Shown here one piece after another: positions 25,549-47,722 of a stretch of DNA of 64,000 nucleotides. The notes below the pieces were generated by a model, which saw nothing but the letters and a program-made list of their open reading frames with translations, made no database searches and was not told where the DNA came from. The stretch's first letter is position 1. Each line of letters starts with the position of its first letter. The stretch is taken from positions 62,915-126,914 of the forward strand of contig FR890371.1 in NCBI GenBank assembly GCA_000432835.1. The letters run 5' to 3'. Made by a program: the position numbers and the translations under genes. The stretch is from Clostridium sp. CAG:417 (GTDB taxonomy: Bacteria > Bacillota_I > Bacilli_A > RF39 > UBA660).

Positions 25549-25625
25549 GGTCTGTTGGTGAAGTGGTTTAACACGCGCGCCTCTCAAGCTCGTATTCACG
25601 GGTTCGAACCCCGTACAGACTACCA
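25549..25625 (+). tRNA. tRNA, anticodon CUC (Glu-type by anticodon). 77 nt with encoded CCA.
   Basis: Acceptor stem GGTCTGT/ACAGACT (G1:U72), TΨC arm ACGGG-TTCGAAC-CCCGT, anticodon loop CTCTCAA with U33 and A37, and a 3' ACCA. D-stem is only 3 bp and the anticodon stem has one C:T mismatch. Confidence 0.7.
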
Positions 25626-26680: not shown

Positions 26681-26877
26681 ATAATGTAAATGAGAGCTAG
26701 TGATGTGTTACTATGTTCTTTTTTATTTAAACTTCATAAGCAATTAAAGCATTGGCAAATTATCATTACTTTTAATTGATATACGTTTTTATGTAAAATT
26801 TAGTTGCACAAATTTTTAAATACGCTATACTTTTAGTAGGGGTGTTAAGTGATATAGTGGTATTTGAGGAGAAAATT

Positions 26878-27753
26878 ATGAAAAAAATACTTGGGATGGT
26901 TGATGATAATTCTGTTACTCACTTTTTATCTGTTGAGTTGAATGGGATTGATGAGGTTTGTTCTGCTATTGATGATAGTTTCAGCTATAAGATTGATAGA
27001 ACTATATCTTGTGAGGTACTTAATCGGAAGTTATATAGTTTAGGTAAATATCAAGATGATATTTTACATGGTAGAGCACAAGTCCTAAAGGCTTCAATTG
27101 TAAAAATTGATAAAAAACAGCAGAAAGATAATTTTATTGATGAAGTTGATCCTGATATTAGGATGGGATTAGTAAATGTGTCTTTAGTTTATCCATCACA
27201 GATAAGTAAAATTATTAAAAACACTTTTTATGATGATGGGACTTATGGTGAATATAAGTTAATAGATTTAACTGATTTAGCAAAGCTTGCTAATAAAATA
27301 TCAAAAACGAAAAATAATTTTTCTTATGATGGAACCATTGATGCAAAAGTAGGAGAGTTTTCGAGTGCTGGTTATTATAATTATTTAAAAGATACGACTG
27401 CTAATAAACCAATATGGCTTAATAAAAAAGAAAGACAACTTACTAGTGAGATGGTAACGGATATTTTTCAGTGTGTTAGTGAATGCCTTGATATTAAATA
27501 CTTAGGAAGTAGTTTCCTTGATGATTCTTCAAGTCTTGAAACAGAAAAGATGAATAGATTTGCGTTACGTAATAGTGATGCTTTAAAATCTCTAGAACTT
27601 TCGCCGCTTCTTTCTAGAATTCTCAATACTTTAAGTGAAGTAGAACAATATAGAGATATTTCTTATTTTAATATTAGCTTACCTAATTATTTATTAGATG
27701 GTAAACTATATGGTGAGAATGAGAAAAGTCTTGCAAAATCAAAGAAAATGTGA
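26878..27753 (+). CDS. Hypothetical protein
   Basis: Start moved to the ATG after the GAGGAG RBS (MKKILGMVDD...). No recognisable domain. Confidence 0.4.
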   Translation: MKKILGMVDDNSVTHFLSVELNGIDEVCSAIDDSFSYKIDRTISCEVLNRKLYSLGKYQDDILHGRAQVLKASIVKIDKKQQKDNFIDEVDPDIRMGLVNVSLVYPSQISKIIKNTFYDDGTYGEYKLIDLTDLAKLANKISKTKNNFSYDGTIDAKVGEFSSAGYYNYLKDTTANKPIWLNKKERQLTSEMVTDIFQCVSECLDIKYLGSSFLDDSSSLETEKMNRFALRNSDALKSLELSPLLSRILNTLSEVEQYRDISYFNISLPNYLLDGKLYGENEKSLAKSKKM

Positions 27754-27785
27754 TATAATGTGGACAATTAAGAGGAGTGATATGT

Positions 27786-28853
27786 ATGAATAATTTTCAT
27801 GGAGGACCAGGTGGTCCATTTCCAGGTCCAGGATTTGGTCCGGGATTTGGGCCAGCACCAGGTCCAGGATTTGGTCCAGCACCCGGTGGAGTACCATTAG
27901 AAGTTGAATCTCAATTTATGTATGGCGGTGTCGGTGGAGGAAGTAGTAATGAACACAGAATTCCACTTGATATATTATCTGCTAAAAAACTTCCTAGTTC
28001 TAGATTTTTTTCTAGACTTAAGGTTAGATTAAAAAGAGCTAATCTTAGAAGTAATATTAGAAGTGTAAATAAATATTTGCGTAGAGCACAAATTCAACAA
28101 ATGATTTTGGAAAATATGGGAAGTTTATCTCATAGTTATGGAGATAATGCCAGAGTGTTTGCCGATATTACAACTGATGAAATTATAGATACTTTAGACC
28201 AAAATAATAAAAAGATAAAACTAAAAGAAAAATTTTTATTTAATAATCTTCGCAATAAAATTGAGAGAAAAAAAGAAAGATTTTATGTAGGATATTATAA
28301 ATTTAAGTCTTATATAAAGTATGGAAAGTCAGAAAAGAAGAGGAGTTATCAACTAAGAAAAGCTAATCAAGATGTTGATTATAGAAAAGATAAATTACTT
28401 GATGGTTGGTTACTTCATAATTATAATATTTATTCAATATTATTAGGTGATATAAGCAAGAAAAATGGCTTTAAGGGATTACTTCCAGATAGTGCTGATT
28501 TAGAAACCGTTAAAAATGCTAATAAACAAAAAACAGCACCTCAAAATATTCAACAATCAAATACTCAAAATAAAACCGTAAGTCAAAATAACACGAATAC
28601 ACAGACTAATACAAAAACTCAAAGCAATGTAAATACTCAAAATAATGCAAAGACACAAGTAAATGCTACACCACAACCTGCTAAAATACAATCACAACCT
28701 TCACCAGTTAAAATTAGTGATATTAATGATTATCCACCAGTTTATGTAGATCCATGGATTGAAGGAATGTTTAGTAATGATTGGGAAAAAGCTGATGAAT
28801 CAGTAAGCATGGATGTAGAAATTTTAGATGATAAAACTCATCACCATAAATAA
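27786..28853 (+). CDS. Low-complexity hypothetical protein with an N-terminal Gly/Pro/Phe repeat and a C-terminal Gln/Asn/Thr-rich repeat
   Basis: Start at the ATG 8 nt after the AGAGGAG RBS, with an extended -10 TGtGATATAAT upstream. GPGFGPA repeats are encoded by a DNA tandem repeat. The C-terminal NTQ(N/T)K(T) repeats are also present. Confidence 0.45.
   Translation: MNNFHGGPGGPFPGPGFGPGFGPAPGPGFGPAPGGVPLEVESQFMYGGVGGGSSNEHRIPLDILSAKKLPSSRFFSRLKVRLKRANLRSNIRSVNKYLRRAQIQQMILENMGSLSHSYGDNARVFADITTDEIIDTLDQNNKKIKLKEKFLFNNLRNKIERKKERFYVGYYKFKSYIKYGKSEKKRSYQLRKANQDVDYRKDKLLDGWLLHNYNIYSILLGDISKKNGFKGLLPDSADLETVKNANKQKTAPQNIQQSNTQNKTVSQNNTNTQTNTKTQSNVNTQNNAKTQVNATPQPAKIQSQPSPVKISDINDYPPVYVDPWIEGMFSNDWEKADESVSMDVEILDDKTHHHK
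27803..27895 (+). repeat. Imperfect tandem repeat of about 15-18 nt units (ggtccaggatttggtcc...) encoding (G-P-G-F-G-P-A)n
   Basis: Visible in sequence as ggtccaggatttggtccgggatttgggccagcaccaggtccaggatttggtccagcaccc. Confidence 0.6.
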
Positions 28854-29646: not shown

Positions 29647-29663
29647 ATAAGTTTTACTATAAT
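29635..29663 (+). promoter_or_regulatory. sigma-A promoter (TTGAAA, 17 nt spacer, TATAAT) driving the glyQS T-box leader
   Basis: -35 at 29635-29640 and -10 at 29658-29663. Confidence 0.5.
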
Positions 29664-29664
29664 A

Positions 29665-29800
29665 TATGTGATGACGCGATGATGGAGGTTGGAAACTCCT
29701 AGCGCTACAAAGAAAGAGATTCTTCTGGAATAAGTAAGGTGGAACCGCGGGGTAACTCGTCCTTACATTTATTCTGGGAGTTTTATTTTTTTAGGAGGAA
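29665..29800 (+). promoter_or_regulatory. T-box riboswitch leader (tRNA-Gly-responsive) upstream of glyQS
   Basis: Conserved T-box sequence AAGGTGGAACCGCGG at 29736-29750. Terminator helix GGAATAAgTAAGG / CCTTAcaTTTATTC followed by TTTTATTTTTTT, immediately before the glyQS RBS. Confidence 0.75.
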
Positions 29801-29806
29801 AATAAT

Positions 29807-31168
29807 ATGAAAATGGAAGAATTAGTTAATTACTGTAAACAATATGGTTTTATATTTCAGGGTAGTGAAATATATGGTGGACTTGCAAATACATGGGATT
29901 ATGGTCCATTAGGAAGTAGACTAAAAAATAATATTAAAGATACTTGGAGAAAAAGATTCATTCAAGAAAGACGTAATGCTTATGAAGTTGATGCAGATAT
30001 TTTAATGCATCCGAAGGTTTGGGAAGCAAGTGGACACGTATCATCTTTTTCTGATCCATTAATTGATTGTAAGAATTGTAAAACAAGACATAGAGCAGAT
30101 AATTTAATAGATGATTTTTCAGAGGATGCAGATGCTGATGCAATGAGTCAAGATGAAATGATGGAATATATTAAAACTCATCACGTTCCATGCCCAAAAT
30201 GTGGGAAATCAGATTTTACTGATATTAGACAATTTAATTTGATGTTTGAAACCCATAGAGGAGTAGTAGAAGATGGTAAAAATAAGGTTTATTTACGTCC
30301 AGAAAACGCTCAGGGGGAATATGTTAACTTTTTAAATGTTCAAAGAACTACTAGATCAAAACTTCCTTTTAGTATAGGTCAAATAGGTAAGGCTTTTAGA
30401 AATGAAATAACACCTGGTAACTTTACTTTTAGAACAATAGAATTTGAACAAATGGAATATCAAACTTTCTGTAAGGAAGGAAATGATTCTGAATTATATA
30501 ATTATTTTAAAGAATATGCTAAAAAGTATTTTATGGATTTAGGAATTCCAGAGAGCGATTTAAGATTCCATGATCATGAAAAATTAGCTCATTATGCTAA
30601 GGAAGCATGTGATATAGAATATAAATTTCCTTTTGGTTGGGGAGAAATCAATGGAACACATAACAGAACTAATTATGACTTATCTCAACATCAGAAGGTA
30701 TCAGGAGTTAGTCAAGAATATTTAGATCCTGAAACAAACGAGAAATTTATACCTTATATTGTAGAATCTACTATAGGTTGTGATAGAGCAGTACTTGCAG
30801 TTTTATTTAATGCTTATCATAAGGAAACACTAGAAAACGGTGAAGAACGTGATGTAATGAAGTTTTTACCTTCAATAGCACCATATAAAGTAGCAGTTTT
30901 ACCTCTTGCTAAAAAATATCATAGCGAAAAAGCCTCTGAGGTATATGATATGTTATCCAAAAACTTTATGTGTAGTTATGATGAGGCTGGTTCTATAGGT
31001 AAACGTTATAGAAGACAAGATGCTATTGGAACACCTTTTTCAATTACTATTGATGATAATACTATTAATAATAATACTGTTACTATTAGAGATAGAGATA
31101 CAATGGAACAAATTACATTGGAATTAGATAAAGTAATACCTTATATTGAAGAAAAAATTAAGTTTTAA
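29807..31168 (+). CDS. glyQS: Glycine--tRNA ligase (alpha2 type, GlyQS)
   Basis: Class II aaRS motifs and the conserved GlyRS N-terminus (YGF.FQGSEIYGGLAN.WDYGPLG). Confidence 0.93.
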   Translation: MKMEELVNYCKQYGFIFQGSEIYGGLANTWDYGPLGSRLKNNIKDTWRKRFIQERRNAYEVDADILMHPKVWEASGHVSSFSDPLIDCKNCKTRHRADNLIDDFSEDADADAMSQDEMMEYIKTHHVPCPKCGKSDFTDIRQFNLMFETHRGVVEDGKNKVYLRPENAQGEYVNFLNVQRTTRSKLPFSIGQIGKAFRNEITPGNFTFRTIEFEQMEYQTFCKEGNDSELYNYFKEYAKKYFMDLGIPESDLRFHDHEKLAHYAKEACDIEYKFPFGWGEINGTHNRTNYDLSQHQKVSGVSQEYLDPETNEKFIPYIVESTIGCDRAVLAVLFNAYHKETLENGEERDVMKFLPSIAPYKVAVLPLAKKYHSEKASEVYDMLSKNFMCSYDEAGSIGKRYRRQDAIGTPFSITIDDNTINNNTVTIRDRDTMEQITLELDKVIPYIEEKIKF

Positions 31169-31183
31169 TACTATTTTATACTC

Positions 31184-31211
31184 AAGACCTAGTACTTTAG
31201 GTCTTTTTTCT
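31184..31211 (+). terminator. Rho-independent terminator after glyQS
   Basis: AAGACCTA-gtactt-TAGGTCTT hairpin followed by TTTTCTT. Confidence 0.7.
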
Positions 31212-31264
31212 TGCATATTTTTAAATTTTATGATATAATAGCAACTACTTTAAGGGGTGTAGAT

Positions 31265-32224
31265 ATGAAGAACTTAGAAGAAGATAGTTATGGATTTATC
31301 ACAGATATTGATGATGTTGTTGGAAGTGAGGAATATCAGCAATTACCTACGGAAGAGAAGAAAAAGATTTTACTTTCCATTCTAAATACTAATAATAAGA
31401 AACTAAAAAATAATGATGAACATAGAGGAGAGTTAATAAATGTTATCTGTGATAATGGAATAGTCGAAAAGAAGAGTAAACACATTTTAGAAGAAAATGA
31501 AGAAAGCTATAATGTTTTGTCTCTTGATTTTTTGATGCAATGTGATAATTATCAAGACATGATTAGATGTGGACTTTTACCACGTAAGGATAAAGCTACT
31601 TATAATAAAGAAATGAAAAATATTTTACTTGCCGTTAGAAATGAACTTGATGCATATGAGGTTGCTAAATATGAAGATGAGGATGATTTATTTAGTGAAG
31701 AAAGGCAGAATTGTGAGAGACTTTTTTCTATATTGCTTGACTATGATGAGTATGAAGAAGAAGAAATTAAAATTGATGTTCAAAGTGATTTTCATGTAGT
31801 TTATTTACCTAATAGTGTTAGAGAACTTGATAATTCACCAATAATTAAAGATGTTTGTAAAAATTGTCAAAAAGATATTTTAGTTAGAATGATTAATTCA
31901 ATTAAAGAACAAGAATTTAAAGGATTGAAGAGATTTACTTGCCATTATTCAGAATTTTATGAACTTAGAGCTAATCAACAAAGAGTAGTTTTTCATTTTT
32001 TAATGCCTAACGTCGTAGTAGTTATTTCTGCTTTTACTAAAAAAGTAGATACTAATAAGAGATATCGTATGGAACTTAGAAATAGAGTTAATAGATATCG
32101 TAGTGTAAAAGATAAATTGAAAAAAATTATAGATAGTTCATCAAGAGAACAGTTTTTTAAGTTACAAGATGATATAGAACAACAGTTTATGAACGATATT
32201 GATAAAAAGTTAATAAAGGGGTAG
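31265..32224 (+). CDS. Hypothetical protein with an acidic N-terminal region and a C-terminal RelE/ParE (HigB/Gp49-like) toxin-fold domain
   Basis: Start at the ATG after the AAGGGG RBS. A TTGCAT-17-TATAAT promoter lies at 31211-31239. The C-terminal FYELRANQQRVVFHFLMPNVVVVISAFTKKVD matches the RelE/ParE core (yELRv..yRviy.....v.il.v.hRK). Confidence 0.4.
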   Translation: MKNLEEDSYGFITDIDDVVGSEEYQQLPTEEKKKILLSILNTNNKKLKNNDEHRGELINVICDNGIVEKKSKHILEENEESYNVLSLDFLMQCDNYQDMIRCGLLPRKDKATYNKEMKNILLAVRNELDAYEVAKYEDEDDLFSEERQNCERLFSILLDYDEYEEEEIKIDVQSDFHVVYLPNSVRELDNSPIIKDVCKNCQKDILVRMINSIKEQEFKGLKRFTCHYSEFYELRANQQRVVFHFLMPNVVVVISAFTKKVDTNKRYRMELRNRVNRYRSVKDKLKKIIDSSSREQFFKLQDDIEQQFMNDIDKKLIKG

Positions 32225-32229
32225 TTTAT

Positions 32230-34131
32230 ATGAATGAGTTATTAGTACAATTACAAAGAGATATTGCAGTTAATAGCATTGAAAAAGGTTTTTATAAAGA
32301 TTATGTGAAAGTGTGGAGCCAATTACAAACTATTTGTGATAGTGCCTTAGCAGCTAATGATGAAATTTTTAATAAAACTATTAGAGAAATAGACTTAGAT
32401 GAGTTGATTAGATTTGGTGTTATATCTTGTGATTATGAACAAAATTTGGCTTCCGTTTATAATGCAAGTGATGCTTTAGAGAAACTAGTTAATTTACGTG
32501 AACTTCGTGATAGAGGAAAACTTACTTTATTGACATATTTAAATGTAAATATGGAAGATGTAGAAGAAACTGATATAGAAAGAGTTAAAAAAAATAAAGA
32601 AGTGGCAACTGTATTTTTAAAAACTTGTTTTGATAAAAATTATATTAATAGTATTAATTGTATATGTAAAAGTGATATAGCTAGTCCTATTTTAAGATTG
32701 ATTATAGAAATTAAAAAATTAAAACAGGAAAAATTTACTAGGGAGGAATTATTAACTTCAACCTTTCTTGCTAAAAAAATGGATGGCTTTGATGTTGTGG
32801 ATGTAACAGATGATTTAATGCATTCCTTAATTTATTTTGAAATGGTCGATGCAGAAGTTATTTGTATTACGAGAGATGAAATAATACCTAAATATAAAGA
32901 AAAAATTAGCAATATAAATAAAGTTCAGAAGAAAAAGGAAAAAGAAGTAAAAGCCTTTAAGCATCTCCAAAAGAAAATTGATGAAGGACAAGTAACTGGA
33001 GATGAAATAGGCAGATTTTTCGAAGATTTTGATATTAGTGAAAGAATGCAAGTTAATATATTAGAAGATGCTGTTTCTCATAATATTTCTTTTGTAAAAG
33101 TGCATGAACAAACATTAACAAAAGATAAAAAATATAAACAATTATTTTTAAAATATAGATATGATTATGATAAGATAGATGACGATTTCAAAAAGATTAT
33201 TGAAACAATAGATCTAGGTGCTTTAGAAGATAAATTTACTGTTTTGGCTAAAACGGGAATATGTCTTACTTATAGTAACTTAAGTTATATTTTACAAAAA
33301 GATATTACAGGTGATTTAGGGTTAATTGAAATGCTTTTAAATCGTAAATATATTAATACTAAATTTATAAATAATAATATAGATATATTAGTTGATAATG
33401 AGGAACTAAAGAAGGTATGTGATAACATTTTATTATTAGCAGATAATGGTGCATATGATATAGATCACATTAATTATAAAGTACTTAGATATGAAAATTC
33501 ATATTTAAAAGCTATATTAGATTTATATCATATCTATGATATTAGTATTTGTGGTAATGTAGACTTAGCAAAATTACTTGATGTTAAAAATTTTGATATA
33601 ATTGATTCGTTAATAGAAGAAAATATAGATAAAAATGTTATTGAAGAAATACTTTGTAGAGATGATGCTTTAAATATAGTTAAAAGAATTCATATTAATA
33701 ATTTAATAGAAGCAGATTCTTTAAATGATGATGGTAGTTTAGGTAATGAAGTTAAGAGCAATAAGTTTTTTGTAGCTAATAGTAATTTAGATAAACTATC
33801 TTGTAATCATGTTAGTGAATTTCAAAATAGTGATATAAGAGAGTTATTTTCTCTTTCACCAAGATTAGATATTAGTGAAGAGATTATTAATAGTAATTTT
33901 ATAAAATATATGGATGAAAATTATTTAGACCAGGGAAATTACAATATAGGAGGAAATATAATTTCTAGAGTGAAGGTACTTAGAAATTTAGAATGTCTTA
34001 AAAATACAGCTAATCTTAATGAAGAAGCTTTGTTTGATAGTATAATTTATAATTCAATGTTATCAGTTGATGAATTATATACTATTAAAGATAGTTTGCA
34101 GGGCAAAGACAAAAAGCGTCTAATTGTGTAA
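32230..34131 (+). CDS. Large hypothetical protein (633 aa)
   Basis: Starts 6 nt after the preceding gene (operonic). No recognisable motif. Confidence 0.4.
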   Translation: MNELLVQLQRDIAVNSIEKGFYKDYVKVWSQLQTICDSALAANDEIFNKTIREIDLDELIRFGVISCDYEQNLASVYNASDALEKLVNLRELRDRGKLTLLTYLNVNMEDVEETDIERVKKNKEVATVFLKTCFDKNYINSINCICKSDIASPILRLIIEIKKLKQEKFTREELLTSTFLAKKMDGFDVVDVTDDLMHSLIYFEMVDAEVICITRDEIIPKYKEKISNINKVQKKKEKEVKAFKHLQKKIDEGQVTGDEIGRFFEDFDISERMQVNILEDAVSHNISFVKVHEQTLTKDKKYKQLFLKYRYDYDKIDDDFKKIIETIDLGALEDKFTVLAKTGICLTYSNLSYILQKDITGDLGLIEMLLNRKYINTKFINNNIDILVDNEELKKVCDNILLLADNGAYDIDHINYKVLRYENSYLKAILDLYHIYDISICGNVDLAKLLDVKNFDIIDSLIEENIDKNVIEEILCRDDALNIVKRIHINNLIEADSLNDDGSLGNEVKSNKFFVANSNLDKLSCNHVSEFQNSDIRELFSLSPRLDISEEIINSNFIKYMDENYLDQGNYNIGGNIISRVKVLRNLECLKNTANLNEEALFDSIIYNSMLSVDELYTIKDSLQGKDKKRLIV

Positions 34132-34184
34132 TATTTATTTTCAAAAACTAATAGTTGTGCTATTCTAAGAATGATGGAGGCAGT

Positions 34185-35210
34185 ATGAATAAGTTAGAAT
34201 TTGATGAAAGCGTTAAAGTTTTGGAAGTTGGCGTAATTGGGAGTAGTAGATTATTTAATTCTAATGGTAATGATAAAAGTTATGTTTTAGGAAACATTAG
34301 TTTTTTATATGATCAAGATAGAGTTTTAGTAGAGGGCTCTGACATTTATGATATAAGTAATGAAGTGATGATAAGTTATCCTAATAATAATTTTGGTATC
34401 TTAAGACTTGATGATAAATTATCTATAGAAAATAAGGAAGGCTTTATAGCGTTTGTTTGTGCGGCTAGGGATAAATTTAGAAAAAGAGATATTTCTTATG
34501 ATGATTTTTATGAGGCTTTGGAAAGAGTGACTTCGGTTCTTATTAGTAAATATAATCTTAGAGTTAGTACTGATGAGTGGATGAGGAGTAATGATCAACT
34601 TTCTAAAAAATATTTTAATACAATTAAAAAGAATGCCCATTTAACTTTTAGAAAAACAGGTAAGAAGGCTTATGAACAGAATTGTAATCAAACACTTAGG
34701 AGAAACTTGATAGAATTTGATAATTGTGTTAATCCGTTTATGAGTAATAAATATAGTTCTTCACAAATGGAGGATGCTTTAAGAAAGATGGAGATTTCAT
34801 TTGATACTAATAATAGTGATGGTTCTGTTGTTACAATAAGTGATCTTGAAACTAATAATTATGTTACATATAGAAGAGCAAATGATGGCTTTAGTTATGG
34901 ACTTACTTATAAAGATTCAAGTGATATGATATTTTCTTTATTTCATACATTTAATTTAGATAATAGTAATTCAATGTATGATGGTGAATATATAAAATAT
35001 GAATTTGGAAGTAATGATTATAATATTACTCCTACAACTACTATATATAATTTAACCCATAATATAATTCAACATAATAGTGGGGCTATTGTTGATGCTA
35101 GTGTTGATGATAAGATAGAAATGTATCAACATTTAATTACAGCTAATGCTTATGCAGCGCAAGTTACTTTGGATAATGTATCTAAAGGATATAGTTATTC
35201 AAAAAAATAG
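34185..35210 (+). CDS. Hypothetical protein
   Basis: Start at the ATG after the GGAGG RBS (MNKLEFDES...). No recognisable motif. Confidence 0.4.
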   Translation: MNKLEFDESVKVLEVGVIGSSRLFNSNGNDKSYVLGNISFLYDQDRVLVEGSDIYDISNEVMISYPNNNFGILRLDDKLSIENKEGFIAFVCAARDKFRKRDISYDDFYEALERVTSVLISKYNLRVSTDEWMRSNDQLSKKYFNTIKKNAHLTFRKTGKKAYEQNCNQTLRRNLIEFDNCVNPFMSNKYSSSQMEDALRKMEISFDTNNSDGSVVTISDLETNNYVTYRRANDGFSYGLTYKDSSDMIFSLFHTFNLDNSNSMYDGEYIKYEFGSNDYNITPTTTIYNLTHNIIQHNSGAIVDASVDDKIEMYQHLITANAYAAQVTLDNVSKGYSYSKK

Positions 35211-35211
35211 T

Positions 35212-35240
35212 TGACTTTTACTAGAGTTTATCATATACTA
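35212..35240 (+). promoter_or_regulatory. sigma-A promoter (TTGACT, 17 nt spacer, TATACT) for the infC-rpmI-rplT operon
   Basis: -35 at 35212-35217 and -10 at 35235-35240. Confidence 0.5.
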
Positions 35241-35337
35241 ATAACAGTTAAGAAATGGAAAGAGATTTATATCCACCTGATTGCTGTTAGTAGCGATGGG
35301 TAAATGCCTTTAGAAAACTGGTGTTTTCAATTGTGTT

Positions 35338-35373
35338 TAAAAGCGGATATGAATTATCTGCTTTTCTTATTTT
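35338..35373 (+). promoter_or_regulatory. Leader hairpin plus U-tract (attenuator) directly upstream of infC, consistent with an L20-responsive leader
   Basis: AAAGCGGATA-tgaat-TATCTGCTTTT hairpin followed by CTTATTTT inside a roughly 135-nt leader. In Bacillus-type organisms L20 binds the infC leader and causes termination. Confidence 0.4.
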
Positions 35374-35922
35374 ATGGAGGTGTTAGTTATCGCAAACGGT
35401 AAGAACGATTTGCCTATCAACGAACAGATTAGAGCAAAAGAAGTTTTGGTGGTTGGACCTAAGGGTGAACAAGTAGGGGTTAAAAACATAAAAGATGCTT
35501 TAACACTTGCTAGTTATGCTAATTTAGATTTAGTCTTAATTAGTCCTAATGCTAATCCACCAGTATGTAAAGTAATGGATTATAATAAATTCCGTTATGA
35601 AAAACAAAAGAAACAAAAGGAAGCATTAAAGAAACAAAAAGCTAGTAGATCTGAATTGAAAGAATTTAGATTATCACCAACTATTGATGTTGGAGACTTT
35701 GAAACAAAACTTCGCAATGTCATCAAATACTTAGAAAAAGGTGACAGAATTAAGGTATCAGTTCGTTTTAGAGGACGTCAAATGGCTCATACTGAGCTTG
35801 GTGAAGAAGTATTAATGCGTTTTTCTTCTAAACTAGAAGAGTATGCTGATATACAAGAAAAACCAAAATTAGAGGGTAGACAGATGACAATGTTACTAGT
35901 ACCTAAGAAAGATAAAAAATAA
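35374..35922 (+). CDS. infC: Translation initiation factor IF-3
   Basis: Conserved IF3 N-domain (INEQIRAKEVLVVGPKGEQVGV) and C-domain (KQKKQKE...EFRLSP.ID.GDFETK). The listed ATG sits inside the SD-like ATGGAGGTG; the true start is possibly the ATC at 35389, a non-canonical start typical of infC. Confidence 0.85.
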   Translation: MEVLVIANGKNDLPINEQIRAKEVLVVGPKGEQVGVKNIKDALTLASYANLDLVLISPNANPPVCKVMDYNKFRYEKQKKQKEALKKQKASRSELKEFRLSPTIDVGDFETKLRNVIKYLEKGDRIKVSVRFRGRQMAHTELGEEVLMRFSSKLEEYADIQEKPKLEGRQMTMLLVPKKDKK

Positions 35923-36149: not shown

Positions 36150-36731
36150 ATGGCAAGAGTAAAAAATGGAGCTGTTACTAAGGCTCGTCATAAGAAAGTA
36201 TTAAAACAAGCAAAAGGATACTTTGGTAGTAAACATCGTTTATATAAAACTGCAAAAGAACAATTAATGCATTCAGGACAATATGCATTCCGTGATCGTA
36301 AACAAAAGAAGAGAGATTTCCGTAAATTATGGATTACAAGAATTAATGCTGCTTGTCGTGAAAATGAAATTAGTTATTCAAGATTTATTGAAGGACTTAA
36401 CAAAGCAGGTGTTGAAGTTAACCGTAAAATGTTATCTGAAATAGCTATTAATGATCCTAAGGCTTTCAGTGAATTAGTAAAAGTTGCTAAAGATGGAAAA
36501 GCTGGTAAGATTGCTGCTAACAAGAGTGAAAATACTAAAGAAGTAACTATTAACAAAACAGCAAGTAAGAAAACAAAAAAAGAAACAGTAAAGAAAGCTG
36601 TTAAAGAAGAAGTAAAGGATGTTGATTACAGTAAAATGACTGTTGCTGAATTAAAAGAAGTTGCAAAAGAAAAAAATATTAATGTAACGGGTATGAAAAA
36701 AGCAGAAATAGTTGCTGAATTAAGTAAATAA
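36150..36731 (+). CDS. rplT: 50S ribosomal protein L20 with a roughly 75-aa C-terminal extension
   Basis: L20 core ([19 protein letters not shown]...[12 protein letters not shown]). Extension ends ...[31 protein letters not shown], a Rho-N/SAP-like helix-loop-helix. Confidence 0.9.
36507..36731 (+). other. C-terminal Rho-N/SAP-like extension of L20 (domain-level annotation)
   Basis: Residues about 120-193 beyond the canonical roughly 118-aa L20. Lys/Glu-rich linker then [31 protein letters not shown]. Confidence 0.5.
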
Positions 36732-36824
36732 AAAAATAGACATATAAGTTATTTTCTTGCCTAGTGCCTATATGGTGGTAAGTTATAAGACTTGTAGATG
36801 AAAAAAACAAAAGGAGAAAAATAT

Positions 36825-37736
36825 ATGAGTACAATTGTATCAATGAATTATTTATTAGAAGCTGGTGTTCATTTCGGACATCAAAGAAGAAGATGGAATC
36901 CAAAAATGAAGGAATACATCTATACTACAAGAGATGATATTTATATTATCGATTTAACAAAAACAGTTAAGAAGTTAGAAGAAGCATATGAAGCTATGAA
37001 AAAGATTGCTGAAGAGGGTGGAAGGGTTTTATTTGTAGGTACAAAGAAACAAGCTCAAGAAGCAGCTGAAGAATGTGCTGTTCGTACTAATAACTATTTT
37101 GTTACTGAAAGATGGTTAGGTGGAACTCTTACAAACTTTAGAACTATTCGTTCAAGAGTACGTAGAATGGATGAAATCGATAAAATGGAAGAAGATGGAA
37201 CATTTAATCTTTTACCTAAAAAAGAAGTTATCCAAATTAAGAAAGAATATGAAAAATTAAATAAAAACTTACGTGGTATTCGTGAAATGAAGAAATTACC
37301 TCAAGCATTAGTTATTGTTGATCCACGTAAAGAAGAAAACGCTATTAAAGAAGCTCGTATTTTAGGAATACCTGTATTTGGTATTGTTGATACTAACTGT
37401 GATCCAGATTTAGTTGATTATGTTATTCCTGGTAATGATGATGCTGTTAGAGCTGTTAAATTAGTAATGGGTGTACTTACTAACGCTATTGCTGAAGTTA
37501 ATGGTAATGAAGTTGTTGATTATGTTACTGAAGATGACAAAAACAACAAAAAAAATGTAAAAAAAGAAGCAGTTAATGAAGTAAAAGAAGAAGTTAAAAA
37601 AGAAGAGAAGAAATTTTTTGAAGAAGATTTAAATACTTTAACTTTATCTGATTTAAAAAATAGAGCAAAAGAAGCTGGCGTTAAAGGCTATTCTGCAATG
37701 AAAAAAGCTGAATTAATTGAAGCTTTAGAGAAATAA
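36825..37736 (+). CDS. rpsB: 30S ribosomal protein S2 with a C-terminal Lys/Glu-rich extension
   Basis: Start at the ATG after the AAGGAG RBS ([20 protein letters not shown]). The C-terminal tail ...[30 protein letters not shown] resembles the L20 tail. Confidence 0.92.
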
Positions 37737-41789: not shown

Positions 41790-42491
41790 GTGATTTATAT
41801 GTTTTTTCATGTGTTTGAAATGGTTCATCATTTGTTTTTTACGGGAAGTTATTCTAATCAGGTGTTTCCAGAACCATTGTCTTTAGAAGAAGAAACAGTT
41901 ACTATTGAAAAAATGTTAAAGGGGGATAAGGAGGCTCGAAATAAATTAATTGAACATAATTTACGTTTAGTCGCACATATAGTAAAAAAGTTTGATTTTA
42001 AAGAAGGAGACCAGGATGATTTAATTAGTATAGGTACTATTGGATTAATTAAGGGAGTAGATACTTTTTCTAATCTTAAAAGCGTTAAATTAACAACATA
42101 TTGTGCTAGATGTATAGAAAATGAAATTTTGATGTTTTTTAGGTCAAATAACAAAAATAATAAGAATGTATCCTTAAATGATGCGGTTGGATATGATAAA
42201 GATGGCAATGAAATAGCTATTTTAGATGTTTTAAAGACTCCGAAGGAGGACTTTTTTGAGGGAATTGCCTTAAAGGATGATATAAATCTTTTAAATCAAT
42301 ATTTTGAAGTCCTTTCAGAAAGGGAAAAAGATATATTGATACGACGATATGGACTTTATGGAAATGATGAACATACACAAAAAGAAATAGCTAAAACACT
42401 ACATATTTCTAGAAGTTATGTTTCTCGAATAGAAAAAAGAGCACTTACCAAAATTTTACGGGAATTTATTAAGAATAATCAAATAGATTAG
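41790..42491 (+). CDS. sigK: RNA polymerase sporulation sigma factor SigK (pro-sigma-K, uninterrupted)
   Basis: Pro-sequence ...NQVFPEPLSLEEE, NLRLVAHIVKKF, TYCARCIENEILM and ISRSYVSRIEKRAL closely match Bacillus SigK rather than SigE. Confidence 0.8.
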   Translation: MIYMFFHVFEMVHHLFFTGSYSNQVFPEPLSLEEETVTIEKMLKGDKEARNKLIEHNLRLVAHIVKKFDFKEGDQDDLISIGTIGLIKGVDTFSNLKSVKLTTYCARCIENEILMFFRSNNKNNKNVSLNDAVGYDKDGNEIAILDVLKTPKEDFFEGIALKDDINLLNQYFEVLSEREKDILIRRYGLYGNDEHTQKEIAKTLHISRSYVSRIEKRALTKILREFIKNNQID

Positions 42492-45876: not shown

Positions 45877-45961
45877 TAAGTAAAATGGCATGTAAAGTAT
45901 ATGCTGTTTTCTTTTTCTATTAGTTTATTATGTTATAATCTGTATAGGTAAGGTGATATTT

Positions 45962-47722
45962 ATGACAAAGTTAGAAGAGGCTTTAGGAAGACTTGGCAAT
46001 TTAGAATTAGATAAAAATACAGATGATATTATTAATTACTTAGAAAATAATAAAGAAAAAATAGTAATTGAAAAGCAGGAATTTTCTCTCACTGATATTA
46101 TTTCTTTTGCTAAGAATCCTTCGCTAATCTTAGAAAAAAGGCAAATAGAGGTGGCTGATAATGGTATTAAGACATATCACTTTAATAAAAAATTTATAGA
46201 TTTAGTTAGTAAACATATGTCTTCTTCTATATCTTCATTAACTATTCCAGCTTCTTATTTTAATAAAAATAGTGTTTTTAAATATCCAAATTTAGAAGAG
46301 CTTAACCTGAATATAAATAAATATGATTTATTTAAAATAGATTTGAAGACAATGAAACAATTATTAAATCAAACAAAAATAAGAAAGCTTGATGTAGATT
46401 GTTATCTTGATGATCAGGTATTATTAGAGAATTGTTGTGGAATTAAGTCCTTTATGGGAAGTAAACTTAATATGGATGGCTTAAATATAAATTCAAGAAA
46501 CTATCAATTTAATCCTAAAGTAGAAGGCTTCGTAAAAAAGGATGGTACGGGAGTTAATGAAGTTTTGGATTTAGCTTTAAAAAATAAAACCTCAGATATA
46601 GAAGGTATAAAAATTTATAATAACTATAAATGTGGGTATGGAAATGATAAAATTGATTATCAGAAATATAAAAAAGGCTCAATTATTGAATTTGGTGATA
46701 CCGAATGTCAAAAAGATGTTAAAGCTATAAAAATAAAAAATATAGAGCATATAATGGATGTTTTTGATATAGTTAACAGCTTTCAGGAAAGAGGATTTGA
46801 GGTAGAAGCAATTTATTTATTTTTAGAGAATAAAACTTATGATGATATGAATTTATTAAGACAACTAGACAAAAAATATGATTTAAAGATAAAATATGAT
46901 GGGTCTTTACAGGTAATAGATAGTAATACTTTTGTGGGAATGAGAGATAGCATAGACTATTATAAAGATGTAATAAATAATAGTAACTCATCTAATTTAG
47001 AAAAAATAATGCTTGCTTATGATATTGTTAAGTCTTTTCCTTATAAGGAAAGAAAAGATAATTTAAGGATACCTCGAGAGGTAGCGACTATTATTAAAGA
47101 TGGTAATATTGTTTGTGTAGGATATTCACAATTATTATCTCAAATTCTAAAAGAAACAGGAGTAGATAGTTATACAATAAGTACATCTGTTCCGGTAGGG
47201 GATGATGTTATAGGTCATGAAAGAAATGTGATAGTTGTTGATGATGATAAGTATGATATACATGGAAATTATGTCTTTGATGTAACATGGGACTCTGCTA
47301 AAAACATAACTAAATGTATTGATAGTGAAGAAAAAAATGTTTTAAGAAGTAAAAGTAGTCCTATATTAGATACTGATCAAGTAGTAAAACATTATGATAA
47401 TTTAGTTCTTTATAGATACTTTTTAATTTCTGATAACAGATATAATAGTTGTTTTCCAGGGGAGCCTTATCCAGATTTTAAATATGCGGAAAAGATTTCT
47501 TCATCAGGAGAGACATTTGATGATGATACCTTAGGTAGTAAGGAGTTAGAACAATCTAAGTTTATAGAATTACTTTATAATGTAAAACTTAGGGAGGGTT
47601 ATTCTGACGCTAATGTAGAAGAGGAAATAGAAGATATATTTGATTTTTTAGGAAATTACTCTAAAGATGATATTAAAAAAGAGATAGAAAAGATTATTAA
47701 CAATAATTCTAAACAAGTATAA
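45962..47722 (+). CDS. Hypothetical protein with a transglutaminase-like (Cys-His-Asp) core
   Basis: C(VGYSQLLSQIL)...H(ERNVIVVDDD)...DVTWD resembles the transglutaminase-like cysteine protease fold. Start at the ATG after GGTGAT; extended -10 TGTTATAAT at 45931. Confidence 0.4.
   Translation: MTKLEEALGRLGNLELDKNTDDIINYLENNKEKIVIEKQEFSLTDIISFAKNPSLILEKRQIEVADNGIKTYHFNKKFIDLVSKHMSSSISSLTIPASYFNKNSVFKYPNLEELNLNINKYDLFKIDLKTMKQLLNQTKIRKLDVDCYLDDQVLLENCCGIKSFMGSKLNMDGLNINSRNYQFNPKVEGFVKKDGTGVNEVLDLALKNKTSDIEGIKIYNNYKCGYGNDKIDYQKYKKGSIIEFGDTECQKDVKAIKIKNIEHIMDVFDIVNSFQERGFEVEAIYLFLENKTYDDMNLLRQLDKKYDLKIKYDGSLQVIDSNTFVGMRDSIDYYKDVINNSNSSNLEKIMLAYDIVKSFPYKERKDNLRIPREVATIIKDGNIVCVGYSQLLSQILKETGVDSYTISTSVPVGDDVIGHERNVIVVDDDKYDIHGNYVFDVTWDSAKNITKCIDSEEKNVLRSKSSPILDTDQVVKHYDNLVLYRYFLISDNRYNSCFPGEPYPDFKYAEKISSSGETFDDDTLGSKELEQSKFIELLYNVKLREGYSDANVEEEIEDIFDFLGNYSKDDIKKEIEKIINNNSKQV

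Follow-up and report, generated by a model that had tools for sequence, protein, structure and literature searches.

We analysed a 64,000-nucleotide stretch (the window) of contig FR890371.1 (positions 62,915 to 126,914; NCBI GenBank assembly GCA_000432835.1), which belongs to a metagenomic species annotated as Clostridium sp. CAG:417 with a genome of about 1.2 Mb. Three same-strand open reading frames (ORFs), called here genes A, B, and C, lie between glyQS (29807-31168) and infC, and all three of their proteins are annotated as 'unknown' or 'hypothetical'. Our main finding is that A and B are a fast-evolving, undescribed pair conserved across a clade of small-genome gut Bacilli, in which a HigB-type ribonuclease (RNase) is set in a new two-protein architecture. 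RelE/HigB-type mRNA-cleaving RNases (mRNases) are normally stand-alone toxins of about 100 amino acids (aa) whose antitoxins are small and bind DNA. In A, this catalytic core is joined to an acidic helical domain, and its invariable partner is a large helical protein unlike known antitoxins, sensors, or enzymes.

The C-terminus of protein A is a Gp49/HigB-type RelE-fold RNase domain (residues 176-292, 31790-32140 on the plus strand) with an isoelectric point (pI) of 9.8 and a net charge of +11. The best Pfam match of A residues ~211-273 was Gp49 (PF05973; 16.5-16.7 bits, E ~0.008), and the same family came out on top in 9 of 12 diverse relatives scanned singly (E 0.003-0.1), each time under the gathering score. 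The domain was also matched by phrog_2523, a family listed as function unknown (E 5e-4). An AlphaFold2 model of A was made from a 22-sequence alignment and had a mean predicted local distance difference test score (pLDDT) of 74, rising to 80-92 over the C-terminal domain. In this model, a first strand (177-180) and two helices (192-198 and 203-214) precede a four-stranded sheet (221-224, 231-236, 239-247, and 250-258) and a long C-terminal helix (264-290); this arrangement, in which the N-terminal strand and the helices pack against an antiparallel sheet of four strands, is the fold of the RelE/ParE (BECR-fold) superfamily. A long C-terminal helix is typical of the Gp49-like HigB toxins and has been described for the HigB of toxin-antitoxin-chaperone (TAC) systems, Streptococcus pneumoniae HigB, and Vibrio cholerae HigB2 (PMC9098466). 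When the model was searched against PDB with Foldseek, the 19 best matches were all RelE/ParE-superfamily toxins, with S. pneumoniae HigB at the top (E 3.6e-3, probability 1.0). The earlier note on this DNA, made from the letters alone, had proposed that the first protein ends in a RelE/ParE-fold domain and had named structure prediction as the check; the recurrent Gp49 matches, phrog_2523, and Foldseek agree on this beyond chance, and the predicted structure is RelE-like. A profile of the A family was also aligned by hhalign to HigB1 of Mycobacterium tuberculosis in the same residue register (E 0.014, a single comparison); the HigB1 sequence used had been checked against PDB 7AWK/7NBU and was identical save for the K95A mutation. 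Searches of PDB sequences with A by phmmer and hmmsearch recovered no HigB.

Judged by its residues, the domain appears intact, with the full HigB catalytic pocket retained. The window sequence YELRANQQRVVFHFLMPNVVVVISAFTKK aligned without gaps to a fragment of the S. pneumoniae HigB PDB sequence, which places E233 (31961-31963), R235 (31967-31969), R240 (31982-31984), F257 (32033-32035), and K259 (32039-32041) at E66, R68, R73, F90, and K92, respectively, with the catalytic spacing E-x-R-x4-R-x16-F-x-K kept identical. The active site of S. pneumoniae HigB is made up of D61, E66, R68, R73, F90, and K92; RNase activity and toxicity depend on R68, R73, and F90 and, to a lesser degree, on K92 (PMC7984235). 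K259 also corresponds to K95 of M. tuberculosis HigB1, and K222 is the equivalent of its K58. The HigB1 toxin sits in the ribosomal A site, its K95A mutant is non-toxic, and R68, R77, K58, and K99 are likewise needed (PMC9098466). Across 12 diverse A proteins that are otherwise 20-55% identical, K222, R223, E233, R240, F257, and K259 were invariant, and the position of R235 held R in eight, K in three, and I in one. The three proteins had been described earlier as having no recognisable catalytic motifs, which does not hold for A, where the HigB active-site residues are all present at identical spacing and conserved in the family; the suggestion of a degenerate toxin-antitoxin (TA)-derived domain is likewise at odds with a catalytic set that is near-invariant across the A family.

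Homologues of A made up 488 clusters at 50% identity with E<=1e-3, 358 of them with E<=1e-10. The family is nearly uniform: almost all members are 305-350 aa long and matched over their full length, no other fusions were seen, and the family profile, over the 488 clusters recovered, does not merge with the stand-alone Gp49 toxins. Because A fails the curated Pfam threshold for Gp49, its RNase domain is filed as a diverged new subfamily and not as a Gp49 member. A single weak CARF match (E 0.009, 1 of 22 members) and the ASXH, PCP, and SBDS matches were treated as chance. The products of genes A, B, and C thus fall outside described families, as had been noted: none reached the cut-offs of Pfam or NCBIfam, and none had a match in PADLOC.

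The RNase domain is preceded by an N-terminal domain (residues 1-175, 31265-31789, plus strand) that is all-helical in the model and acidic, with a pI of 4.4 and a net charge of -21. The acidic domain in front of the toxin fold had been recognised before; its length is about 175 aa instead of the 200 aa first given. A GLLPxK motif is conserved in it, residues 52-84 form a disordered segment, and by hhalign the domain is unrelated to B (E 0.22). In two relatives, the domain occurs without the RNase core. At loci L010 (7307-7825) and L013 (6971-7492), the first of two tandem A genes ends after the first strand of the RNase domain, leaving 172-173 aa, and directly abuts its own B gene (B1). The two truncated A copies are 78% identical, and the truncated pair showed ratios of nonsynonymous to synonymous substitution rates (dN/dS) of 0.41, the value for the A copies, and 0.27, indicating purifying selection. 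Modules usually decay in this way when the part that goes is toxic, and the loss of exactly the RNase core from one paralogue would be expected if that part is dangerous. The retention of B by these copies suggests that the N-domain docks on B.

Protein B is all-alpha and acidic (pI 4.9, net charge -28). No family was found for the window protein and 17 relatives in Pfam at E<=0.1, or for B in NCBIfam and PHROGs, and a PDB profile search with B returned no meaningful relative. The B proteins contain neither a Walker A nor a CxxC motif, and the 17 relatives gave one chance-level match in PADLOC. They are nevertheless homologous to one another: a hidden Markov model (HMM) of four sequences found the B proteins of L014 and L005 at 4e-13 and 1e-11, and the next round found all others at 1e-18 to 1e-45 before they were included in the model. 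The alignment of 17 sequences holds just five invariant residues. The idea that B is an mTERF-like or other helical-repeat protein found no support, with no significant internal repeat in segment-versus-segment hhalign (best P 0.017) and no Pfam mTERF match. As observed earlier, no small helix-turn-helix (HTH) gene follows A; the next gene is the 633-aa B, which has no HTH.

In species-representative genomes and metagenomes, each of the 20 A genes obtained from relatives was followed by a homologous B gene, and the two genes overlap by 8 nucleotides (nt) in L001 and L004. The identities of A and of B track each other across species. The data show that B is an obligate, co-evolving partner of A. 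Four species-representative loci carry two tandem A-B pairs, and metagenome locus L041 has a second A gene past its first A-B pair. Divergence between the tandem paralogues equals that between distant orthologues (identities of 33-35% for A and 22-32% for B), and copy 2 is orthologous across L010, L013, and L017; the duplication is therefore old, and both copies have been kept. The pair occupies different slots in the window and in the relatives that have the yqeG-yqeH...dnaG-rpoD-trmK block in common with it: between yqeH and dnaG in L001, L004, L007, and L008; between glyQS and infC, with C added, in the window; upstream of rplU, near addA, in L009-L013, L017, and L041; and upstream of gyrB in L005. 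The yqeH/dnaG slot of the window is filled by a 589-aa ORF (45953-47722) in which a transglutaminase-like Cys…His…Asp stretch was noticed by eye (…VCVGYSQLL…GHERNVIVV…YVFDVTWDS); this ORF was considered as a second A-B copy or a degenerate B and rejected, being unrelated to A and B by HMM. A-B pairs were also seen on L012, a 2.8 kb contig labelled Gastranaerophilales, and on L016, a 227 kb contig labelled Muribaculaceae. These labels probably reflect mis-binned low-GC Bacilli contigs and not horizontal transfer.

Gene C does not belong to the conserved module. No homologue was found outside its own cluster and species in a search of 5.8 billion proteins, nor at any other A-B locus, and C had no match to SecB or any other family in Pfam, NCBIfam, or PHROGs. 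The third gene at L005 is an unrelated 1163-aa ORF. C is thus a species-specific passenger, and the three-gene operon that had been put forward as a functional unit is reduced in relatives to A and B. The neighbourhoods of the second and third proteins in other genomes, which the earlier note had wished to see compared, give opposite answers: B stands with A at every locus, whereas C is absent. Within the species, the 319/633/341 aa operon was found with identical layout and place in contigs of 1.0-1.3 Mb from at least eight independent samples (8 strain contigs listed of 25), and the clusters to which its proteins belong contain 316, 766, and 309 sequences.

A and B change three to six times faster than their neighbours. 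Between related species, neighbouring housekeeping proteins were 86-98% identical, compared with 57% for A and 49% for B; between the window and L008, the values were 72-89% for neighbours, 41% for A, and 33% for B. Between species, dN/dS was 0.17-0.41 for A and 0.33-0.57 for B, compared with 0.02-0.13 for the neighbours. The 92%-identical contig L039 was considered as a sister lineage for these rates and rejected, its assembly being riddled with frameshifts in every gene. Within the species, the ratio of nonsynonymous to synonymous diversity (piN/piS), calculated from few substitutions, was 0.56 for B and 0.34 for C.

Several known systems resemble the pair in part. With the Gp49-like HigB toxins of type II higBA operons (S. 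pneumoniae HigB, PDB 6AF3/6AF4; V. cholerae HigB2), A shares the catalytic residues and their spacing, the long C-terminal helix, and the combination of a basic toxin domain with an acidic partner; the toxin gene also comes first and is translationally coupled to its partner. A differs by its extra 175-aa acidic helical N-domain and by lying under the Pfam cut-off, and the pair is passed on vertically and has become fixed in small genomes. The partner, in place of a small XRE/HigA-type HTH antitoxin of about 100 aa, is an all-helical protein without an HTH, 600-640 aa long (596-643 aa in the B proteins measured). Since it has no HigA/HTH antitoxin and its partner is six times larger, A-B is not a canonical higBA module. 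The TAC system of M. tuberculosis (HigB1-HigA1-SecB-like, PDB 7NBU/7AWK) has a pocket, K58/E66/R68/R77/K95, with equivalents in A, and a three-gene, toxin-first operon layout similar to A-B-C. HigB1 is a ribosome-dependent mRNase whose C-terminal helix contacts the P-site tRNA, and A has a C-terminal helix too. However, B is not HigA-like, and C is neither SecB-like nor conserved beyond the species, so that a SecB-like third gene kept with the pair is lacking, no chaperone-addiction logic can be inferred, and A-B-C is not a TAC.

The Menshen defence system (NsnABC) has an effector, NsnC, in which a non-catalytic N-terminal domain precedes a C-terminal BECR RNase, and Gp49-type NsnC variants are known (PMC12065111). 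In A, however, the N-domain is modelled as all-helical and is not an inactive PIN fold, there is no defence-island context, and A is accompanied by neither NsnA (ParB-DUF262) nor NsnB (ABC ATPase-DUF3696); no ParB/DUF262 or ATPase match was found in B or in the adjacent genes. The match to the NsnC model was confined to the BECR core of the 316-aa A subfamily (E ~4e-4), and no defence component of PADLOC-DB v2 was found among the three window proteins. A-B is not Menshen. The fused BECR toxins of Gerdes (2025) and Cami1 (CARF-RelE) are like A in that a RelE RNase domain is part of a larger protein and is regulated by a fused or adjacent component. A 2025 survey of monodomain and multidomain RelE/ParE toxins, including gp49-HTH fusions, RelE-YiaG, ToxM/ToxR, and PtuXYZ, describes no architecture with an acidic helical N-domain and a partner of about 620 aa, and set aside multidomain BECR proteins without an identifiable antitoxin (PMC11980606). 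A itself has no HTH, transmembrane, CARF, or ATPase domain.

The reading that we favour, and to which we give about even weight, is that A and B are a lineage-specific, toxin-first, higBA-like module in which a basic mRNase domain is restrained by the acidic N-domain, by the acidic B, or by both. By analogy with HigB1 and S. pneumoniae HigB, the A domain would enter the ribosomal A site and cleave mRNA. The RNase domain would be held inactive by the N-domain and/or B, with B in the position of HigA, the small HTH antitoxin of ordinary higBA operons, and the N-domain would serve as a tether to B, as a self-inhibitory element, or as both. Release or activation by some signal would then shut down translation. 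The charges of the three parts (-21, +11, and -28 for the N-domain, the RNase domain, and B, respectively) are complementary, which, like the co-varying divergence of A and B, is an indirect hint of binding. Fast evolution, moves between slots, tandem duplication, and a paralogue without the RNase core are points for a conflict module; the favoured reading would accommodate either an addiction/conflict module or a regulated brake on growth or translation.

A number of observations weigh against this reading. A scored 16.5 bits against the Pfam Gp49 gathering threshold of 23.9. No HTH or antitoxin family was found in Pfam among 17 B proteins at E<=0.1, B is about six times larger than typical antitoxins such as HigA, and its structure model, made from three sequences, was poor (pLDDT 48.6; the best Foldseek match of that model, E 0.75, is meaningless). 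No operator-like palindrome was noticed in the upstream regions of the A genes compared, where no repeat search was made. The operon is fixed in every strain examined of a species with a 1.2 Mb genome, and within that species A, with a piN/piS of 0.06, is constrained as strongly as the ribosomal proteins (rplT 0.05, rpsB 0.06), a value that again comes from a small number of substitutions. One clade has inherited the pair vertically at a constant locus, upstream of rplU. No mobile-element gene was noticed around A-B loci, no relatives of A-B were found in 2.9 million viral contigs within the limits of a pattern pre-filter, and tblastn of the A domain against plasmids found none. Fixation, the constraint on A, vertical inheritance, and the lack of a viral, plasmid, or mobile link are explained by a domesticated function no less well than by a selfish module. 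The earlier note had said that a conserved core function in relatives would count against its proposal, and the pair goes half of the way towards this, since it is conserved and vertically inherited, has housekeeping genes around it, and is fixed in a genome of 1.2 Mb.

The same observations lead to the alternative that A-B is a domesticated housekeeping complex, a lineage-specific core factor that would serve translation or RNA metabolism in gut Bacilli with reduced genomes and would no longer behave as a TA pair; we consider this possible but clearly less probable than a restrained toxin. It might, for example, be a regulated mRNase on the ribosome that acts in mRNA turnover, ribosome rescue, or quality control, where B would be the scaffold or adaptor to which A docks by its N-domain. 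Such a role is suggested by the identical operon layout in all listed strains of a 1.0-1.3 Mb genome, the size of the protein clusters, the near-ribosomal constraint on A, the uniform architecture over at least 358 clusters at 50% identity, and the position, always amid housekeeping genes, as well as by a conserved promoter that looks strong and constitutive and by phage or plasmid copies not being found in the contigs searched. The persistence of N-domain and B without the RNase, under purifying selection, also indicates that the complex has some value independent of the RNase. Core factors, however, rarely evolve three to six times faster than their neighbours, and it is rare for them to differ in slot among close relatives or to be maintained as tandem paralogues of deep divergence. 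The five invariant residues of B and its piN/piS of 0.56 within the species also count against a core factor. Tentatively, A-B could then represent an unrecognised class of ribosome-targeting RNase complex, a vertically inherited core regulator of translation or mRNA turnover. In it, a HigB-type domain with intact catalytic residues would be tied for good, by way of the N-domain, to a helical adaptor of 600 aa that stands in for the antitoxin and provides regulation or the choice of substrate. If so, it would be a housekeeping machine built from a toxin, neither a selfish TA nor a defence-island gene.

Two further explanations have less in their favour. A role in abortive infection (Abi) or defence, with B as a large sensor that frees or activates the RNase effector A on phage infection, would bring the pair close to the NsnC effector of Menshen, TAC-HigB defence modules, and CapRel-type fused systems. 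The order of a variable N-terminal domain and a C-terminal BECR RNase is that of NsnC (PMC12065111), whose PADLOC model matches the 316-aa subfamily in its RNase core; Abi effectors are known among HigB toxins of the Gp49 type (PMC11980606); and A and especially B evolve fast and form tandem paralogues. We nevertheless regard this role as improbable, since the window proteins A, B, and C matched none of the PADLOC families, no NsnA or NsnB equivalent is present, B has neither a Walker A motif nor a significant Pfam match, no further defence gene stood out among the Pfam-annotated neighbours, the module is fixed and not variable among strains, dN/dS is below 1 throughout, and the contexts are housekeeping loci and not defence islands. 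It is more improbable still that the HigB-like domain is a non-catalytic relic acting only as a ribosome- or RNA-binding or structural module. The divergence of A beyond the Pfam Gp49 threshold, the K or I found at R235 in a few family members, and the example of M. tuberculosis HigB2 and HigB3, which are non-toxic despite the fold (PMC9098466), would be in keeping with such a relic, but the five HigB active-site positions and the equivalent of the A-site-codon lysine are conserved at exact spacing, and save for R235 the pocket is invariant over sequences that are otherwise 20-55% identical, a pattern that selection on catalysis would produce.

The A family, with at least 358 clusters, goes undetected by Pfam, NCBIfam, and PADLOC when their thresholds are applied. 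The pair has been kept in gut bacteria with genomes of about 1.2 Mb, in some cases as two ancient tandem copies, and CAG:417, a very prevalent human-gut species, is one of them. Should A-B be a TA module, the range of what can serve as an antitoxin would become wider; should it be domesticated, it would stand as a clear example of a toxin fold taken over for the core control of translation. Whichever reading applies, two abundant human-gut 'hypothetical proteins' gain a testable biochemical activity.

The same-strand set of three ORFs between glyQS and infC was confirmed, and the features of the operon described here lie on the plus strand. An intrinsic terminator hairpin of glyQS (31184-31205; a 9-bp stem with three GC pairs, followed by a T-run) sets the operon apart from glyQS. 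It is followed by the operon promoter (31211-31239), with a -35 box TTGCAT (31211-31216), a 17-nt spacer, and an extended -10 TGaTATAAT (31231-31239), in which TATAAT occupies 31234-31239 and the TG at 31231-31232 makes the -10 an extended one. A consensus promoter scan did not pick up this promoter, because its -35 box matches only three of six positions. Promoter-like hexamers in this AT-rich region were no commoner than in shuffles (38 found versus 44 expected), and the promoter claim therefore rests on position and comparison: read by eye from the upstream sequences, TTGxxx-17-TGnTATAAT stands directly 5' of gene A in at least eight divergent relatives, and in several of them it lies just behind a terminator-like hairpin. 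The TTGCAT-17-TATAAT promoter and preceding terminator of the earlier note are thus both present, the promoter with the backing of these relatives, and the module's own extended -10 promoter is likely to be strong. The TTG at 31211 opens a mechanically called ORF, but as it is part of the -35 box, the start of gene A is ATG 31265.

Gene A (31265-32224; 319 aa, in agreement with public gene calls) has a ribosome-binding site (RBS), AAGGGGTG, at 31252-31259, 5 nt upstream of its ATG, and ends with a last helix and the stop codon (residues 293-319, 32141-32224). This 3' end holds the RBS of gene B, AAAGGGGT. Gene B (32230-34131, 633 aa) starts 5 nt past the stop of A. Gene C (34185-35210) encodes 341 aa from ATG 34185, with the RBS GATGGAGG at 34173-34180; of the sizes given before, the 633 aa of the second protein stands and the 351 aa of the third does not. 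A promoter-like site of infC-rpmI-rplT, TTGACT-17-TATACT (35211-35239), begins at the base after the stop of gene C. As no terminator was found between C and this site, read-through from the A promoter into the infC operon is possible.

Further observations concern the neighbouring genes of the window. A terminator-like hairpin (35339-35365) stands directly before infC and could be a diverged attenuator or leader. Neither a T-box upstream of glyQS (29660-29800) nor an L20 leader upstream of infC (35240-35370) reached Rfam gathering scores, and the only Rfam match in the 64 kb was one tRNA (25549-25622). The infC ORF opens with ATG 35374 inside ATGGAGGTG (35374-35391), in which GGAGGTG (35376-35382) makes a good RBS 6 nt before an in-frame ATC at 35389; by these letters, the initiation codon of infC may be a non-canonical AUC, comparable to the unusual starts known from IF3 autoregulation. 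Both rplT (36150-36731; L20, 193 aa) and rpsB (36798-37736; S2, 312 aa by the ORF list and 303 aa in public calls) encode lysine-rich C-terminal extensions that end in a SAP/Rho_N-like helix-extended-helix motif (Pfam PF02037 SAP, weak; PF07498 Rho_N). To our knowledge, such nucleic-acid-binding tails are unusual on L20 and S2.

Upstream of murI, two adjacent ORFs (26842-27753, 303 aa; 27777-28853, 358 aa) had no family match; the 358-aa ORF opens with a Gly/Pro/Phe-rich repeat, GGPGGPFPGPGFGPGFGPAPGPGFGPAPGG, and also contains a Q/N/T-rich low-complexity stretch. A sigma factor encoded at 41790-42491 has an N-terminal extension and the motif …FPEPLSLEEE…, and resembles the sporulation factors SigE and SigK with their pro-sequence, an assignment made by eye and from Pfam Sigma70_r2/r4 matches. 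A sporulation-type sigma factor is notable in a genome of about 1.2 Mb.

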